A stretch of DNA of 64,000 nt from Bacteroidales bacterium (GTDB lineage Bacteria > Bacteroidota > Bacteroidia > Bacteroidales > WRLA01). The stretch spans positions 9,286-73,285 of the forward strand of contig WRLA01000005.1 in assembly GCA_009777825.1 (NCBI GenBank), given 5' to 3'. Positions within the stretch are counted from its first letter, which is position 1, and the number at the start of each line of letters is the position of its first letter. The notes under the pieces were generated by a model. That model was not told the DNA's origin. It saw only the letters and a list, made by a program, of their open reading frames with translations, and did not search any database. Both the position numbers and the translations under genes were made by a program. Shown here piece by piece: positions 17,808-21,735 of the stretch.

Positions 17808-18026
17808 TTACATTAACGAACGAATCACTCTTTCTACATTCTCAAATGTGCCGGCAGTCCCCTCCATTGCGGATACAAAAGAGTTATAGTCGCTACGAAT
17901 CACAGCGATATGCTCACCGAAGAATTGTTTTTTTACTTCATCTTGCCACGTGGCGTCTGCCTGAGAAATATAACTATTCTCCAAAACAGACTTGCTTTCC
18001 ATTAATTCTGAAATTTTGGCTCTCAT
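17808..18026 (-). CDS. 72-aa helical protein carrying a half W-x-D module (ATWQDEVKKQFFGEH)
   Basis: ORF spaced 9 nt from the downstream gene. Shares the WQDEV..F motif with the ~90-aa family. Confidence 0.6.
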   Translation of the reverse strand: MRAKISELMESKSVLENSYISQADATWQDEVKKQFFGEHIAVIRSDYNSFVSAMEGTAGTFENVERVIRSLM

Positions 18027-18046
18027 ATCATCATCTTTATATGTTA

Positions 18047-18538
18047 TTAACTTTTACTTTCCTTAGGGATGGCATCTATACTTGCCGTTTCATTTGCCGA
18101 ACTTGCATATTCCGACAAATGCTGAATTATTCTGTCCAACTCTTTCATCGTTTCTGTTTTTACCATATTCAATGAGTTGACATATCTGCTTTCAGAACTC
18201 TTATAGGTAGAAAAAGCATTAGCAAGACGAGACATTTCCGATTTGTAGCGTGCATAATCTGCCTGTGCTTGCGACAAAGCCCGTTCCTGATACGCACAAG
18301 AGCGCCTGAACTCCGGCGGATCCATTGCCTTAGCTATCTCACACGACCTTAACGCTTGTGCTGCTACTTCTACTCTGTGTCTAAAAAGGTTCTCTAAACT
18401 TGCCAATTCTTCCATCTTGCGGGAAAGCAGCGAGGTGAAACCTTGTGAAATTTCCATATTTCTGCCACAATACTGCGGCAGAGCCTGATATAGGGATTGG
18501 AGAATCCCTATATCATGAACGTTGCCTTTTGTACTCAT
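18047..18538 (-). CDS. 163-aa all-helical hypothetical protein (possible chaperone/adaptor)
   Basis: ORF spaced 4 nt from the upstream gene. No recognisable motif. Heptad-like helical composition. Confidence 0.6.
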   Translation of the reverse strand: MSTKGNVHDIGILQSLYQALPQYCGRNMEISQGFTSLLSRKMEELASLENLFRHRVEVAAQALRSCEIAKAMDPPEFRRSCAYQERALSQAQADYARYKSEMSRLANAFSTYKSSESRYVNSLNMVKTETMKELDRIIQHLSEYASSANETASIDAIPKESKS

Positions 18539-18542
18539 ACTA

Positions 18543-18806
18543 TTATCCTAAATATTCGGTTTCCATAATTTGTGCTTTTTCTTCCAAATGGGGTATGAAT
18601 GCCTCCATTTTCTGCTTAAGGTTATTTAGTGGCTCTTTGATTGCTTCAAAATCACCTTTAAACCTTGTAGCGACTTCATCTTGCCAATCATAATTATGTA
18701 ATTTCTGAGTCATTGAATGCTCAACTCGATCGAAATCGTCAATATTGTCTTTTAATATTCCGGCGAATCTGCGTAAATCATTCGGGGTTACAATTGCTTT
18801 TGCCAT
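18543..18806 (-). CDS. WXG100-like small helical protein (W-x-D variant), 87 aa
   Basis: MAKAIVTPNDLRRFAGIL...YDWQDEVATRFKGDFE...PLNNLKQKMEAFIPHLEEK. About 65% identical by eye to the N-termini of 19153..20772 and 20779..21735. Confidence 0.75.
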   Translation of the reverse strand: MAKAIVTPNDLRRFAGILKDNIDDFDRVEHSMTQKLHNYDWQDEVATRFKGDFEAIKEPLNNLKQKMEAFIPHLEEKAQIMETEYLG

Positions 18807-18836
18807 GGTATTACTTTTTTAATGGTGAATAAATTT

Positions 18837-19109
18837 TTAAATTTTACTTGCATGATACTGTTGCAATGGTGCAATTTTGCGGTCTAACCAAGGAATAAAC
18901 TCTCCTTCCATTTTTTCTCTCAGTGCATTTATCGGTCGCATTCCTTCCTCAAAATCTTCTTCGAACTGTTTGAAAATCACGTCTTCCCAATCTAAATTCT
19001 TTAACGTTGTTTTCGTTCTTTCGTCAACATCTCTGAAATGTTCACTGTTTTCTCTTAAAACTCTTTGAAAATCAATTAAGTCTTCAAAATCTACATGTAC
19101 TTGTGCCAT
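18837..19109 (-). CDS. WXG100-like small helical protein (W-x-D variant), 90 aa, divergent paralog
   Basis: MAQVHVDFEDLIDFQRVL...LDWEDVIFKQFEEDFE...PINALREKMEGEFIPWLDRK. Confidence 0.7.
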   Translation of the reverse strand: MAQVHVDFEDLIDFQRVLRENSEHFRDVDERTKTTLKNLDWEDVIFKQFEEDFEEGMRPINALREKMEGEFIPWLDRKIAPLQQYHASKI

Positions 19110-19152
19110 AAATTTTTAAATTTAAGTTATTAATTATTAATTATTAAGTTGT

Positions 19153-20772
19153 TTATAAAATATCTAATATGTCTTTATATTTATCTCTTGAGTTTTTTTC
19201 GTGTATTTCCATGAAGCTTGGATAAATACCTTGCAAACTTAATCTCTGAAGGTCGTGGTCTGTTAATTTATTCGATTTTATAGGCTTTGGAGGCTTTTTT
19301 CCGAATGCTCCCCTAACCCCAACTCCAAAAGAAGTTTCCCCTCGATTATTTGCAGTAGCCTGAGCATATCCTTTAAGATCTTCCGTTCCGTGTTCAATTT
19401 TAAACGTTACTTCTTCACTTGTTCCTTTACCTTGTTCCGTTTTCACTTTCGCTGTCATCTCTGCTGTCGTTGTATAACCGTCTTTTTTCCATGTTTTTTG
19501 AGCACGGACATTTGCCTCTTGAGACTTACTATCTGCCGCTGCTCCTACTTCTACCATTTTATCGTCTTTTTTGTATTGAATCTTACTGGAAACTTTTTCC
19601 AATCCACTATCTGTTCCTTTTGCAGTTGCTTCATAAGAAAGAGGCTTGCCATCCTTTTTGACAGATGCCTCCCAACTATTACCTTTGTTGCTGTCGGTCG
19701 TATGACTACCTTTTGCTTTCAAACCATTATTGTTGTATTCTAAACTTTCCGTATGCTTGTCCATGCCTTGATCCGTCCCTCCTATGTTGACTCCGGCAGA
19801 CAAATTATTATTTAATTTTTGTTGTGCATTCATACTCCAAGCATTATCTTTGTTTTGATTAGCAGTATAACTGCCTCCTATTGTGGTATCACCGCTTTGA
19901 TATTGTCCACTCATAGTGCCACTTTCAACAAACTCATTTTGCCCTTTTATATCTGTTTTTAATTGAGAATTTGGAGTCTTATGCTCACCGGTCGTATTCC
20001 ATACAACATTACCGTCATTATCTATTTTTGCTTTCACGCCTATATTAGTGGAATCAACATCACCTCCTGTTTTCTGATTTTGAGAATACGTTACTTCTAC
20101 TTCTGCCGAATCCTTATCATTGTTTTTTTCAGCATGAACACGTGTATTGAGTTTTGAACTATATTCATCTTTGTCCCCTGTTTTTACATCGGAGAGTGTC
20201 TTTTCCGAATTGGCATCAAAAGTGGTTTTTTGTTTACCCTTTAGAAAGTCTGGCTCTTCGTTTAGTTTAGTTTCAAAATTGGGTTTCTTCAAATCGTCTT
20301 TATCATCTTTAGCGTCACCATCCATTGCCGCACCCACTGCTATTCCATCTGTTTTGTCGGCTTTTCCAACAATTCCGTCATCTCCCGCCCCTGTTTTCAA
20401 CGCCGAAAGAGAAGGGCTTCCTCCCATGCCCATTGTCGCTGCACCTGCGCCTATACCGGCAAATGCCGCCGCAGTGGCTTTCAATGCATCAATAGAAGGA
20501 CCACTCCCCGTCGCCAAATATTCACTATCCAAAGTATTCGCTTTTTCTTCTAAATGCGGAATAAATTCCTCCATTTGTTGCCTTAGTTTATTTAAAGGTT
20601 CTTTAGTCGCTTCAAAGTCTGCTTTAAATTTTTCAGCAACTTCATCTCGCCAGTCATAGCCATATAACTTTTGATTCATCGAATTTTCAACCTGCGTGAA
20701 ATCTTCAATGTTCTGCTGTAAAATATTTGCAAAATCTCTTAAATCTTTTGGGGTTACTAGTGCTTGTGCCAT
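19153..20772 (-). CDS. candidate secreted effector: N-terminal W-x-D module, Gly/Ala-rich linker, ~400-aa Cys-free hydrophilic C-terminal region
   Basis: The first 90 aa are near-identical to those of 20779..21735. Linker GSGPSIDALKATAAAFAGIGAGAATMGMGG. The remainder is K/T/G/D/N-rich with an alternating pattern. Confidence 0.7.
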   Translation of the reverse strand: MAQALVTPKDLRDFANILQQNIEDFTQVENSMNQKLYGYDWRDEVAEKFKADFEATKEPLNKLRQQMEEFIPHLEEKANTLDSEYLATGSGPSIDALKATAAAFAGIGAGAATMGMGGSPSLSALKTGAGDDGIVGKADKTDGIAVGAAMDGDAKDDKDDLKKPNFETKLNEEPDFLKGKQKTTFDANSEKTLSDVKTGDKDEYSSKLNTRVHAEKNNDKDSAEVEVTYSQNQKTGGDVDSTNIGVKAKIDNDGNVVWNTTGEHKTPNSQLKTDIKGQNEFVESGTMSGQYQSGDTTIGGSYTANQNKDNAWSMNAQQKLNNNLSAGVNIGGTDQGMDKHTESLEYNNNGLKAKGSHTTDSNKGNSWEASVKKDGKPLSYEATAKGTDSGLEKVSSKIQYKKDDKMVEVGAAADSKSQEANVRAQKTWKKDGYTTTAEMTAKVKTEQGKGTSEEVTFKIEHGTEDLKGYAQATANNRGETSFGVGVRGAFGKKPPKPIKSNKLTDHDLQRLSLQGIYPSFMEIHEKNSRDKYKDILDIL

Positions 20773-20778
20773 GATATT

Positions 20779-21735
20779 TTATATCTCATTTCTATTTACC
20801 GTATTTACTTTTAAATCTGCCAAATCCCTTACATACAAATTTTTATATTTTGGTTGTGGCATGTCTAAGTGAAAGCAATCGCTTTCTTTCAATATAGAAA
20901 TTTGCATATTTTTAGGTAATTTTCTGTTTGCGTTATTCACTGCCTCTTCAAATTTTTTCTTCTCTGCATTTCCCCATTTATTAGATTCAAACCCAATGTC
21001 AACCGCATTTAAATCGTCGTACTGGGGACTCATATGAGTAGAGACAAATCCATTTTTTATTGCCTTATCTTTCATTGCAGATTTAATTTCCTCTTTACTT
21101 TTTCCTTCTTCCACTGCTTGGTCATGTGCTTTAATAATTTCTTGTCCTTTCAATTTATATTTTTTTCTCGCATCACTATTTGGACGATTAATGTAATTGT
21201 ACATAGCGTTGATTTGTTGGTCAAGGTTTCTTTTTGTGCTTGTAATTTTGACCTCCGTAGTTCCCATGTCTTTTCCTATTTCAGAAAGTATTTGTTTTGT
21301 ATATGGAGACACAACTTTTGAATTTATTCCTGGTGCAAACATGATGTTCGCTCCTTGTGAATTAGCAATCGCATCCCTCAAGGGCTGCATCGCAGATCCA
21401 CCCATAGCACCAACACCTACAGATCCAAGTCCTATACCTTTTTTCAATGCCTCAATTGAAGAAGAACTTTCGGTTACCAAATATTCCTCATCCAAAGTAT
21501 TCGCCTTTTCTTCCAGATGTGGAATAAATTCCGTCATCTTATCTTTAAGAGTATTTAGTGGGCTTTTGATTGCTTCAAAGTCTGCTTTAAATGTTTCAGC
21601 GACTTCATCTCGCCAGTCATAGCCATATAATTTTTGATTCATCGAAGTTTCAACCTGCGTGAAATCTTCAATGTTCTGCTGTAAAATATTTGCAAAATCT
21701 CTTAAATCTTTTGGGGTTACTATTGCTTGTGCCAT
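20779..21735 (-). CDS. candidate secreted effector: N-terminal W-x-D module, Gly-rich linker, C-terminal LAS/M15-like zinc peptidase domain
   Basis: C-terminal strings VKITSTKRNLDQQ, STHMSPQYDDLNAVDIG and DCFHLDM fit the (S)xH..D / HxD arrangement of M15/VanY-type peptidoglycan peptidases (by eye). Confidence 0.65.
   Translation of the reverse strand: MAQAIVTPKDLRDFANILQQNIEDFTQVETSMNQKLYGYDWRDEVAETFKADFEAIKSPLNTLKDKMTEFIPHLEEKANTLDEEYLVTESSSSIEALKKGIGLGSVGVGAMGGSAMQPLRDAIANSQGANIMFAPGINSKVVSPYTKQILSEIGKDMGTTEVKITSTKRNLDQQINAMYNYINRPNSDARKKYKLKGQEIIKAHDQAVEEGKSKEEIKSAMKDKAIKNGFVSTHMSPQYDDLNAVDIGFESNKWGNAEKKKFEEAVNNANRKLPKNMQISILKESDCFHLDMPQPKYKNLYVRDLADLKVNTVNRNEI

Follow-up and report, generated by a model that had tools for sequence, protein, structure and literature searches.

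We analyzed a 64,000-nt stretch of DNA (hereafter the window) from contig WRLA01000005.1 of a Bacteroidales assembly (GCA_009777825.1), which carries a group of genes for small helical modules next to a gene for an FtsK/SpoIIIE-type ATPase. A preliminary description had claimed that five neighboring open reading frames (ORFs) share a module of ~90 amino acids with a W-x-D motif; all five lie where it placed them, on the minus strand (Table 1), and the coordinates, the alignment, and the pairwise E-values agree that the module is shared. A module of ~87 residues is common to four of the ORFs, and the fifth, of 72 amino acids, keeps only its second half. Two of the four encode free-standing hairpins of 87 (A-type) and 90 (B-type) amino acids, and the other two encode proteins of 318 and 539 amino acids that begin with an A-type module. 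The four full modules align without internal gaps bar one residue, with 34-68% identity to the 87-amino-acid copy, and the most divergent pair, the 90-amino-acid B-type and the 87-amino-acid copy, matches in BLASTP with E=1e-15 (38% identity over 78 amino acids). Three residues, W41, D43, and F49 (eight positions after the Trp), are invariant in a 16-sequence alignment. All of the window's module proteins are labeled hypothetical protein by NCBI.

The 72-amino-acid ORF, previously described as a half-module, shares with the module just the part that begins at the W-Q-D-E-V turn (pairwise E=1e-4), and hhalign comparison of its 7-member family with the module profile gave a probability of 90% (E=1.5e-6, 34 columns). 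The earlier wording is thus a fair description, but these profiles delimit the ORF as a separate conserved family distantly related to the second half of the module. Its orthologues occur in five related loci (L001, L003, L009, L011, and L013; we designate related loci by L and relative proteins by P), where they always lie directly 3' of a gene for a helical domain that we call h163. The B/A small pair occurs in every related locus that is sufficiently long (L001, L003/L008, L006, L009, L011, and L013), and in these six the B-type gene is the first of the pair and the A-type gene lies directly 3' of it. The two small proteins look more like a conserved EsxA/EsxB-type pair than like Lap-like chaperones. 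At the DNA level, the first ~170 nt of the 539- and 318-amino-acid genes (20603-20772 and 21566-21735) are 97-100% identical. Identity in the remainder of the module is 55-85%, and beyond ~nt 290 it is at noise level, a pattern suggestive of a recent gene conversion or duplication that involved the 5' trafficking module. The G+C content across the hairpin and toxin-like genes (18001-22000) is 0.37-0.38, compared with 0.41-0.53 in the surrounding 2-kb bins, and the GC skew over the same interval is strongly negative.

The proposed relationship of the module to WXG100 proteins was borne out by profile searches. Against the sequences of the PDB, the family profile matched Helicobacter pylori HP0062 (3FX7/2GTS) end to end with E=3e-10, and Bacillus anthracis EsxB (E=1.4e-6), GBS1074 (E=7e-3), and Staphylococcus aureus EsxA (E=0.013) over their full lengths. 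When the module was compared by hhalign with four canonical WXG100 sequences, the probability was 89% (E=2e-6, 82 columns), with Trp aligned on Trp and the Asp under the Gly of W-x-G. Single copies of the module matched Pfam PF06013 over their full length at E-values of 0.012-0.07, scoring 13.8-16.3 bits against a cutoff of 27.3, and their full-length match to NCBIfam WXG100_ESAT6 was also sub-threshold, so that standard models miss the window modules, as had been anticipated. The W-x-G motif itself does not occur in the window modules, in which W-x-D is invariant. The preliminary description had also drawn a parallel with the N-terminal domain of LXG toxins: the long proteins bear it out in architecture only, since the module is only ~90 amino acids long and a Pfam scan gave no match to PF04740 (LXG) at E<=1.

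Structure prediction agreed with the expected antiparallel helical hairpin. In an AlphaFold2 model of the 318-amino-acid protein, residues 8-38 and 44-100 form two helices joined by the turn Y-D-W-R-D, with a pLDDT score (predicted local distance difference test) of about 90 over the module, followed by a disordered Gly-rich linker and an alpha/beta domain. The predicted hairpin superposed on HP0062 (3fx7) with a TM-score of 0.87 and a root-mean-square deviation of 1.6 Å, and on EsxB (4j41/4j7j) with TM-scores of 0.75-0.82; the Foldseek E-values were weak (about 0.1) because the query is short and helical. In this model the Trp would sit in the hairpin turn, and Asp43 would replace the Gly of W-x-G as an N-cap at the start of helix 2. 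Taken together, it is highly probable that the module belongs to the WXG100 superfamily, and the profile matches place the window copies as a Bacteroidales branch of a W-x-D (HP0062-like) subfamily within WXG100/EsxAB.

An exhaustive profile search of a library of 1.84 billion representative proteins returned 1236 clusters with E-values of 1e-3 or lower, 299 of which reached 1e-10 or lower. Of the 150 best relatives, 148 carry W-x-D followed by an aromatic residue at +8 (W-x-D-x5-[FYW]), in keeping with the motif first read from the window translations. Thirteen of these 150 are at least 200 amino acids long, and 12 of the 13, of 248-409 amino acids and with differing C-termini, belong to a Bacteroidales-type group, MAK[AS]IVTP...YDWxD. 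A large second group consists of 90-amino-acid proteins of the type MAQAIVDP..WRDQEH..EEYLQQR from Planctomycetia, Phycisphaerae, Pirellulaceae, and Verrucomicrobiota, and NCBI gives the name 'WXG100 family type VII secretion target' to relatives from Planctomycetota and Verrucomicrobiota; relatives P0014-17 bear a precomputed PF06013 assignment. The W-x-D motif is thus present as first described, but its novelty was overstated, because HP0062 carries W-R-D and these relatives are already annotated as WXG100: W-x-D is the signature of a large Gram-negative WXG100 branch rather than a new motif, and only the Bacteroidales copies escape WXG100 annotation. Outside Bacteroidales, P0096 carries two W-x-D modules in tandem within one 186-amino-acid protein and P0106 carries a MAQAIVDP-type module with a C-terminal extension of ~130 amino acids; module fusions are therefore not a strictly Bacteroidales feature. 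The reading that the similarity is a coiled-coil resemblance due to chance or composition, without a real family or a WXG100 relation behind it, would accord with the weak Foldseek E-values and with single sequences falling below the Pfam threshold, but it is already refuted by the pairwise match and the invariant W, D, and F columns, by the number of clusters and the near-constancy of the motif within them, by the end-to-end match to HP0062, and by a gene order shared among more than 10 loci, and we give it practically no credence.

A shared 5' module joined to swapped 3' ends is a hallmark of polymorphic toxins, and the two long proteins, with their modules fused to variable toxin-like C-termini, have a polymorphic-toxin architecture. 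In the 318-amino-acid protein, the module and disordered linker are followed by an alpha/beta C-terminal domain of ~200 amino acids (residues 116-311 of the model), for which a word-indexed search found a sole relative, the 48% identical P0288; since only this one relative was found, the model of the domain rests on a shallow alignment. P0288 is an Rhs/YD fragment in which the shared domain sits after the DPxxF end of the core (..VSVDPLQF..). In locus L016 (1-2567), this Rhs tip, the first of the locus, is followed by a 155-amino-acid, immunity-like ORF with a signal peptide and then by a second Rhs tip with a different toxin, an order of genes that reads as a classic Rhs orphan toxin/immunity cassette array, and the signal peptide suggests a periplasmic immunity protein. 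Assignment of the 318-amino-acid C-terminus to the LAS/M15 peptidases (from ITSTKR..STH..AVD..CFHLD) was considered but is speculation unsupported by any Pfam, PDB, or Foldseek match.

The 539-amino-acid protein continues from its module into a Gly/Ala linker, beta-type repeats rich in K, G, T, D, and N, and a conserved C-terminal motif of ~40 amino acids. This layout is shared by P0024, P0026, and P0032, which gave only faint beta-barrel matches, and the C-terminal part of the 539-amino-acid protein had no Pfam match; the overall organization is effector-like. Among other Bacteroidales-type proteins, the C-termini gave matches to NlpC/P60-CHAP-amidase and to an HExxH metallopeptidase (DUF6782), all of them sub-threshold. 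The cargo domains look directed at the envelope, and this, like the signal peptide of the immunity candidate, speaks for a target outside the cytoplasm. Just after the module, the long proteins carry the element S-x-x-S-I-[ED]-A-L-K (~21430-21465 and 20380-20500) ahead of the Gly/Ala-rich linker; P0020 has four copies of it and the 539-amino-acid protein two, it occurs also in P0022, and it may serve as a linker, as a site of processing, or for recognition.

The module genes are linked to a 923-amino-acid ATPase that matched FtsK_SpoIIIE (PF01580) at 9e-26 and, among NCBIfam families, best matched EssC (1.6e-32), EccCa, and EccCb. Its AlphaFold2 model (pLDDT 82.8) comprises an N-terminal helix (residues 2-43) and three RecA-like domains, and the top Foldseek match was the three-ATPase EccC structure 4nh0 (E=1.7e-30, ~950 columns), with further matches, 4lya and 4n1a among them, to EssC D2-D3 and to EccC with bound signal peptide. 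Walker A and B residues are invariant only in the middle domain (domain 2), whose Walker A lysine is Lys396, and exactly one Walker A motif (GxxxxGK[ST]) is present in 103 of the 104 ATPase family members. All homologues of 40-98% identity belong to uncultured Bacteroidales, for the most part sampled from termite guts or the rumen, and the labels of the metagenome-assembled genomes (MAGs) carrying their loci include Azobacteroides, Prevotellaceae, Muribaculaceae, Alistipes UBA934, and Paludibacteraceae. Scanning with the ATPase alignment located at least 10 loci among 185,579 GTDB species representatives, a lower bound because the scan was pattern-based.

The linkage of the module to an FtsK/SpoIIIE gene, claimed at the outset for the window, extended to every related locus with enough sequence: each locus with more than 2 kb 3' of an ATPase of at least 40% identity contains the module (L001, L003/L008, L006, L009, L011, and L013), as do L004 and L005, whose ATPases are distant (25-31% identity). 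Fusions of the module, one or two per locus, occur in most loci that are long enough (L001, L006, L009, L011, and L013). In L005 (1-22541), where the ATPase is 26% identical, we observed two W-x-D hairpins, a PP2C phosphatase, kinases, and five FHA proteins, as well as a MotA/ExbB-family protein and an HmpF-like protein. Stand-alone fragments resembling ATPase domain 3 or 2 are present in the variable effector region of L011 (11718-12689) and L013 (14473-15477).

In the window, the module lies within a tight minus-strand gene array running from 25834 to about 7400, and it belongs to a set of about 13 genes that is conserved (Table 1). The shared order begins with the zinc-ribbon-FHA protein, the ATPase, the 218-amino-acid coiled coil, and one or two long module proteins, continues with the B-type hairpin, the A-type hairpin, the h163-domain protein, and the short hairpin of 70-75 amino acids, and proceeds through a vWA-FHA protein with a transmembrane (TM) helix, a PP2C phosphatase with a TM helix, a signal-peptide protein, and a Ser/Thr kinase-FHA protein. 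A Ser/Thr kinase with a TM helix is the thirteenth gene in the window, L001, and L006, and an outer-membrane beta-barrel is the fourteenth only in the window and close relatives. The zinc-ribbon-FHA orthologue precedes the ATPase in L001, L003, and L006-L013, and the 218-amino-acid protein, which matched no family in Pfam or NCBIfam, has orthologues in L001, L006, L007, L009, and L013 and positional equivalents in L003 and L011. Altogether the locus contains three FHA proteins, one PP2C phosphatase, and three Ser/Thr kinases.

Table 1. Positions of the predicted features of the locus; coordinates are those of the window unless a related locus is named.
Position	Strand	Feature	Evidence or remark
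8103..9689		Ser/Thr kinase, in or abutting the locus	One hydrophobic TM-like segment
9715..11055	-	Outer-membrane beta-barrel with N-terminal TPR, 446 amino acids	PF13568 8.5e-13
11070..12656	-	Ser/Thr kinase with extracytoplasmic C-terminal region	One TM helix
12665..13930	-	Ser/Thr kinase with FHA domain	Pkinase 1e-54, FHA 4e-18; C-terminal TM anchor 402-420
13927..15024	-	Signal-peptide protein, 365 amino acids	Conserved
15026..16240	-	PP2C phosphatase	PF13672 2.6e-15; TM at residues 279-297; conserved in related loci
16251..17798	-	vWA-TM-FHA protein, 515 amino acids	FHA 9e-19; TM at residues 332-350
17808..18026	-	Short hairpin, 72 amino acids, [ST]-W-x-D-x-V	Distantly related to the module's second half
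18047..18538	-	h163, helical, 163 amino acids	Two invariant Cys
18543..18806	-	A-type W-x-D hairpin, free-standing, 87 amino acids	Subtype as in the N-termini of the long proteins
18837..19109	-	B-type W-x-D hairpin, free-standing, 90 amino acids, MAQVHV..YH..	BLASTP, conserved position
19153..20772	-	Module fusion, 539 amino acids	A-type module at 20503-20772; alignment
20779..21735	-	Module fusion, 318 amino acids	A-type module at 21466-21735; alignment, AlphaFold2
21748..22404	-	Coiled-coil protein with basic tail, 218 amino acids	Directly 3' of the ATPase gene
22404..25175	-	EssC/EccC-like ATPase, 923 amino acids	PF01580, NCBIfam, AlphaFold2, Foldseek
25208..25834	-	Zinc-ribbon and FHA protein, 208 amino acids, first gene of the block	PF00498 1e-17
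L003 15913-17922; L006 14771-16654; L009 8098-9948; L011 9597-11528; L013 16092-18155		Longer h163-domain genes	

The h163 domain forms the N-terminus of proteins of 616-687 amino acids in other loci, and the window and L001 keep the N-domain alone. In L006 and L011 these proteins have lipase-like C-termini with a sub-threshold Lipase_3 match, and the h163-domain proteins are probably a second class of effectors or adaptors. We rejected the idea that h163 is an LXG- or WXG-like domain, for which hhalign gave a probability of 1-5% and there was no PDB sequence match.

The 515-amino-acid vWA-TM-FHA protein is laid out as a signal peptide, a periplasmic vWA-like domain, the TM helix, a cytoplasmic coiled coil, and an FHA domain with the canonical G-R / S-x-x-H / N-G residues when read by eye; a Muribaculaceae orthologue matched Pfam VWA above threshold (31.8 bits), and the window copy had no Pfam VWA match. 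Each of the membrane-associated signaling proteins, that is this protein, the PP2C phosphatase, and all three kinases, contains one hydrophobic TM-like segment. The kinase-FHA gene is conserved in L001, L006, and L009, and the neighboring TM kinase has an orthologue in L001 and a kinase gene beginning at the same position in L006. The outer-membrane beta-barrel is a possible member of the system. The locus is flanked by housekeeping genes, with SHMT, Sir2, RecX, and glyoxalase on one side and acyl-CoA dehydrogenase on the other, and we found no tRNA or integrase marking it as a mobile island.

We favor the explanation that this locus exports toxins, with a rough probability of 0.55-0.6. The small B-type and A-type proteins would pair as an EsxA/EsxB-like four-helix bundle, the A-type module of the 318- and 539-amino-acid proteins would act as a trafficking domain, and this module would pair with a small partner and bring the cargo to the hexameric ATPase in the way that EssC/EccC receive WXG100 and LXG substrates. 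Threonine phosphorylation would gate either the activity of the ATPase or its recruitment to the membrane: the transmembrane Ser/Thr kinases would write the marks, the PP2C phosphatase would erase them, and the three FHA domains, one of them on the vWA-TM-FHA protein, would read them, in a switch resembling PpkA/PppA/Fha1 of type VI secretion. The cargoes would be antibacterial toxins exported to act on the cell envelope of competitors. Genes for kinases, phosphatases, and FHA proteins are frequent in the new Gram-positive variants T7SSc-j of type VII secretion systems (T7SS), for which both this kind of regulation and an analogy with type VI secretion systems (T6SS) have been raised (PMC11217815), and earlier work predicted that a cassette composed of a TM-less ATPase, a WXG100 pair, and vWA, PP2C, and Ser/Thr kinase proteins is a module for secretion (PMC3482391, footnote 6; PMC11090510). 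More tentatively, and with less confidence than in export as such, the locus may be a self-contained, phosphorylation-gated type VII-like system that crosses the Gram-negative envelope by means of a soluble EccC-like motor with a single active site, which FHA-phosphothreonine contacts would dock to single-pass membrane partners and an outer-membrane barrel. If so, some gut and rumen Bacteroidales would possess an interbacterial weapon distinct from the T6SS and from T7SSa/b, with hairpin dimers and hairpin-fused polymorphic toxins as its cargo.

Several observations weigh against toxin export. No TM helix was detected in the ATPase, in which the highest 19-residue hydropathy window scored 1.65, and none of the 104 family members had a window of TM grade (maximum 1.86), whereas the Firmicute EssC matches reached 2.9-3.0, a clear TM segment, and had three Walker A motifs. 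By these measures the protein is not a canonical EssC, having no TM helix and one active P-loop, and without a membrane anchor it cannot work as EssC does. By hydropathy, the conserved block encodes no polytopic inner-membrane protein that could be a channel, and Pfam and NCBIfam searches of 17 neighboring proteins found no EccB/D/E, MycP, EsaA/EssA/EssB, or YukD/EsaB. Linkage of the outer-membrane protein could be verified only in close relatives (it has the same position in L001), and a metagenome scan with this protein returned only a near-identical 5-kb contig. No immunity-like gene adjoins the two toxin-like genes, which are separated from their neighbors by gaps of 6-43 nt, and the L016 immunity candidate had no homologue in the window or in any related locus. 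The C-terminal domain of the 318-amino-acid protein had no Pfam match at E<=10, no PDB sequence match, and no Foldseek match, and all C-terminal domain assignments fall below family thresholds. Furthermore, all genomes with the locus are uncultured MAGs.

The lack of a TM helix on the motor, of a channel, and of an immunity gene, together with the limited linkage of the barrel, keeps alive a less probable explanation, in which the locus serves intracellular defense or abortive infection: the ATPase, the hairpins, and the phospho-switch would sense phage or envelope stress and free or activate the fused toxin domains inside the producer, and nothing would be exported. The same cassette of ATPase and WXG100 genes is embedded in McrBC-type CoCoNuT loci, and TerY-P-like triads occur as stand-alone antiphage systems (PMC11090510); the present locus contains no nuclease, McrBC, or CoCoNuT gene. 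A PADLOC scan did match the kinase to PD-T4-6 and mad6, the ATPase to SspH and mad8, and also the PP2C phosphatase, each at the level of domains, but these matches reflect generic kinase, P-loop, and PP2C similarity with no other component of the named systems present, and we rejected a catalogued defense system as an identification. Defense also sits poorly with the one traceable toxin domain, which is shared with an Rhs tip adjoined by a signal-peptide ORF, with the peptidoglycan-amidase-like and, for h163, lipase-like character of the other C-termini, which implies envelope targets reached from outside, and with the many components that are membrane-anchored with periplasmic domains and encoded alongside an outer-membrane protein.

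The solubility of the ATPase would suit a scheme in which the hairpins are non-secreted adaptors or chaperones and the ATPase, working in the cytoplasm as an unfoldase or loader, passes the toxins on to another export route, be it vesicles, lysis, or a secretion system that is not linked. A comparison of HP0062 with secretion chaperones has been made (PMC3397514), and the Lap and WXG-like partners of LXG toxins are reported to act as targeting factors (PMC9600955). However, the canonical WXG100 partners are co-secreted, no other secretion-system genes were found in or beside the block, and the block stays together where its genomic context differs, a point in favor of a self-contained system. 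We therefore consider this arrangement improbable, and more so than intracellular defense.

Type VII secretion and its WXG100 and LXG toxins are viewed as a property of Gram-positive bacteria and mycobacteria, and antagonism among Bacteroidales is known to proceed through the T6SS and secreted bacteriocins. We found no description of this type of locus in literature searches that paired WXG100 proteins or type VII secretion with the Bacteroidales, the Bacteroidota, or diderm bacteria. Three elements appear to be new: the module-toxin fusions in Bacteroidales, the conserved block with its membrane-anchored vWA-FHA protein, PP2C phosphatase, and kinases, and a second cargo class consisting of h163-domain proteins with a short hairpin partner. 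The WXG100 relationship and the W-x-D turn are already known from HP0062, and the TM-less ATPase class is known from computational work. The fusions point to a WXG100-type trafficking domain recruited for polymorphic toxins in Bacteroidales, and the family profile finds proteins that current annotation leaves hypothetical. If the toxins are indeed exported, the locus would represent a new pathway of antagonism in gut and rumen ecology and would offer a tractable entry to the TM-less EssC-like ATPase/WXG100 class of Helicobacter, Planctomycetota, Verrucomicrobiota, and others, for which we found no experimental test of function. Should export not be confirmed, the locus would be a case of toxin-armed intracellular defense, which would also be informative.

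Compared with EsxA/EsxB (ESAT-6/CFP-10, YukE), the modules are alike in size, in the helix-turn-helix with a Trp in the turn and an aromatic residue at +8, in the pairing of genes beside an EccC/EssC-type ATPase, and in profile-level homology; they differ in having Asp for Gly, in single sequences that score below threshold, and in their diderm host. Similarly, the ATPase shares with canonical T7SSa and T7SSb the tandem FtsK-like domains and the EccC/EssC fold, but it has no TM helices and a single active P-loop. Resemblance to the LXG toxins lies in an N-terminal helical trafficking domain followed by a variable C-terminal toxin, in small hairpin genes alongside, and in toxin tips shared with Rhs proteins. 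In contrast with the LXG domain of ~200 amino acids, the module is WXG-sized at ~90 amino acids and gives way to a disordered linker, there is no PF04740 match, and no immunity gene is adjacent in the window. The combination of a membrane Ser/Thr kinase, a PP2C phosphatase, and an FHA reader with a secretion ATPase, together with a periplasmic vWA domain, recalls PpkA/PppA/Fha1 of the T6SS. This parallel follows the discussion in PMC11217815, and it is an analogy only; T6SS structural genes are absent from this locus, and its vWA domain belongs to the FHA protein, not to the kinase.

Closer counterparts are found among the TM-less EssC-like ATPases, a class noted by Zhang in 2012 (Table 1, footnote 6; PMC3482391) and treated by Anantharaman in 2012, at least as cited in PMC11090510 and PMC4978471. 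Uchiyama et al. 2016 reported the class in H. pylori with a TerY-P triad, and Bell et al. 2024 described the ATPase without TM helices and suggested 'a different mechanism' (PMC11090510); Bacteroidetes are among the lineages listed for the cassette (PMC3482391, PMC11090510). The present locus agrees with the cassette of these authors in its three HerA/FtsK domains, the middle one alone being active, its N-terminal helix, its lack of TM helices and of an FHA domain on the ATPase, and its two adjacent WXG100-like genes, and differs in that theirs are 'solo WXG domains', whereas here the module is fused to polymorphic toxin tips. Likeness to the TerY-P cassette is clear for the PP2C phosphatase and the kinases and reaches threshold for vWA only in the Muribaculaceae orthologue; here, however, the vWA protein, the phosphatase, and the kinases are membrane-anchored, FHA domains are added, and McrBC/CoCoNuT genes are missing. 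The best solved relative is HP0062, an ESAT-6-like antiparallel hairpin dimer with 'WRD' in place of WXG and an FtsK/SpoIIIE gene nearby (PMC3397514). It shares with our modules the W-x-D turn, a Gram-negative host, and the link to an FtsK/SpoIIIE-type ATPase, which in H. pylori is the product of HP0066 (PMC3397514, PMC4978471). HP0062 is a solo protein of 86 amino acids, whereas in these Bacteroidales the same kind of hairpin also forms the N-termini of toxin-like proteins and an A/B pair within a larger conserved block.

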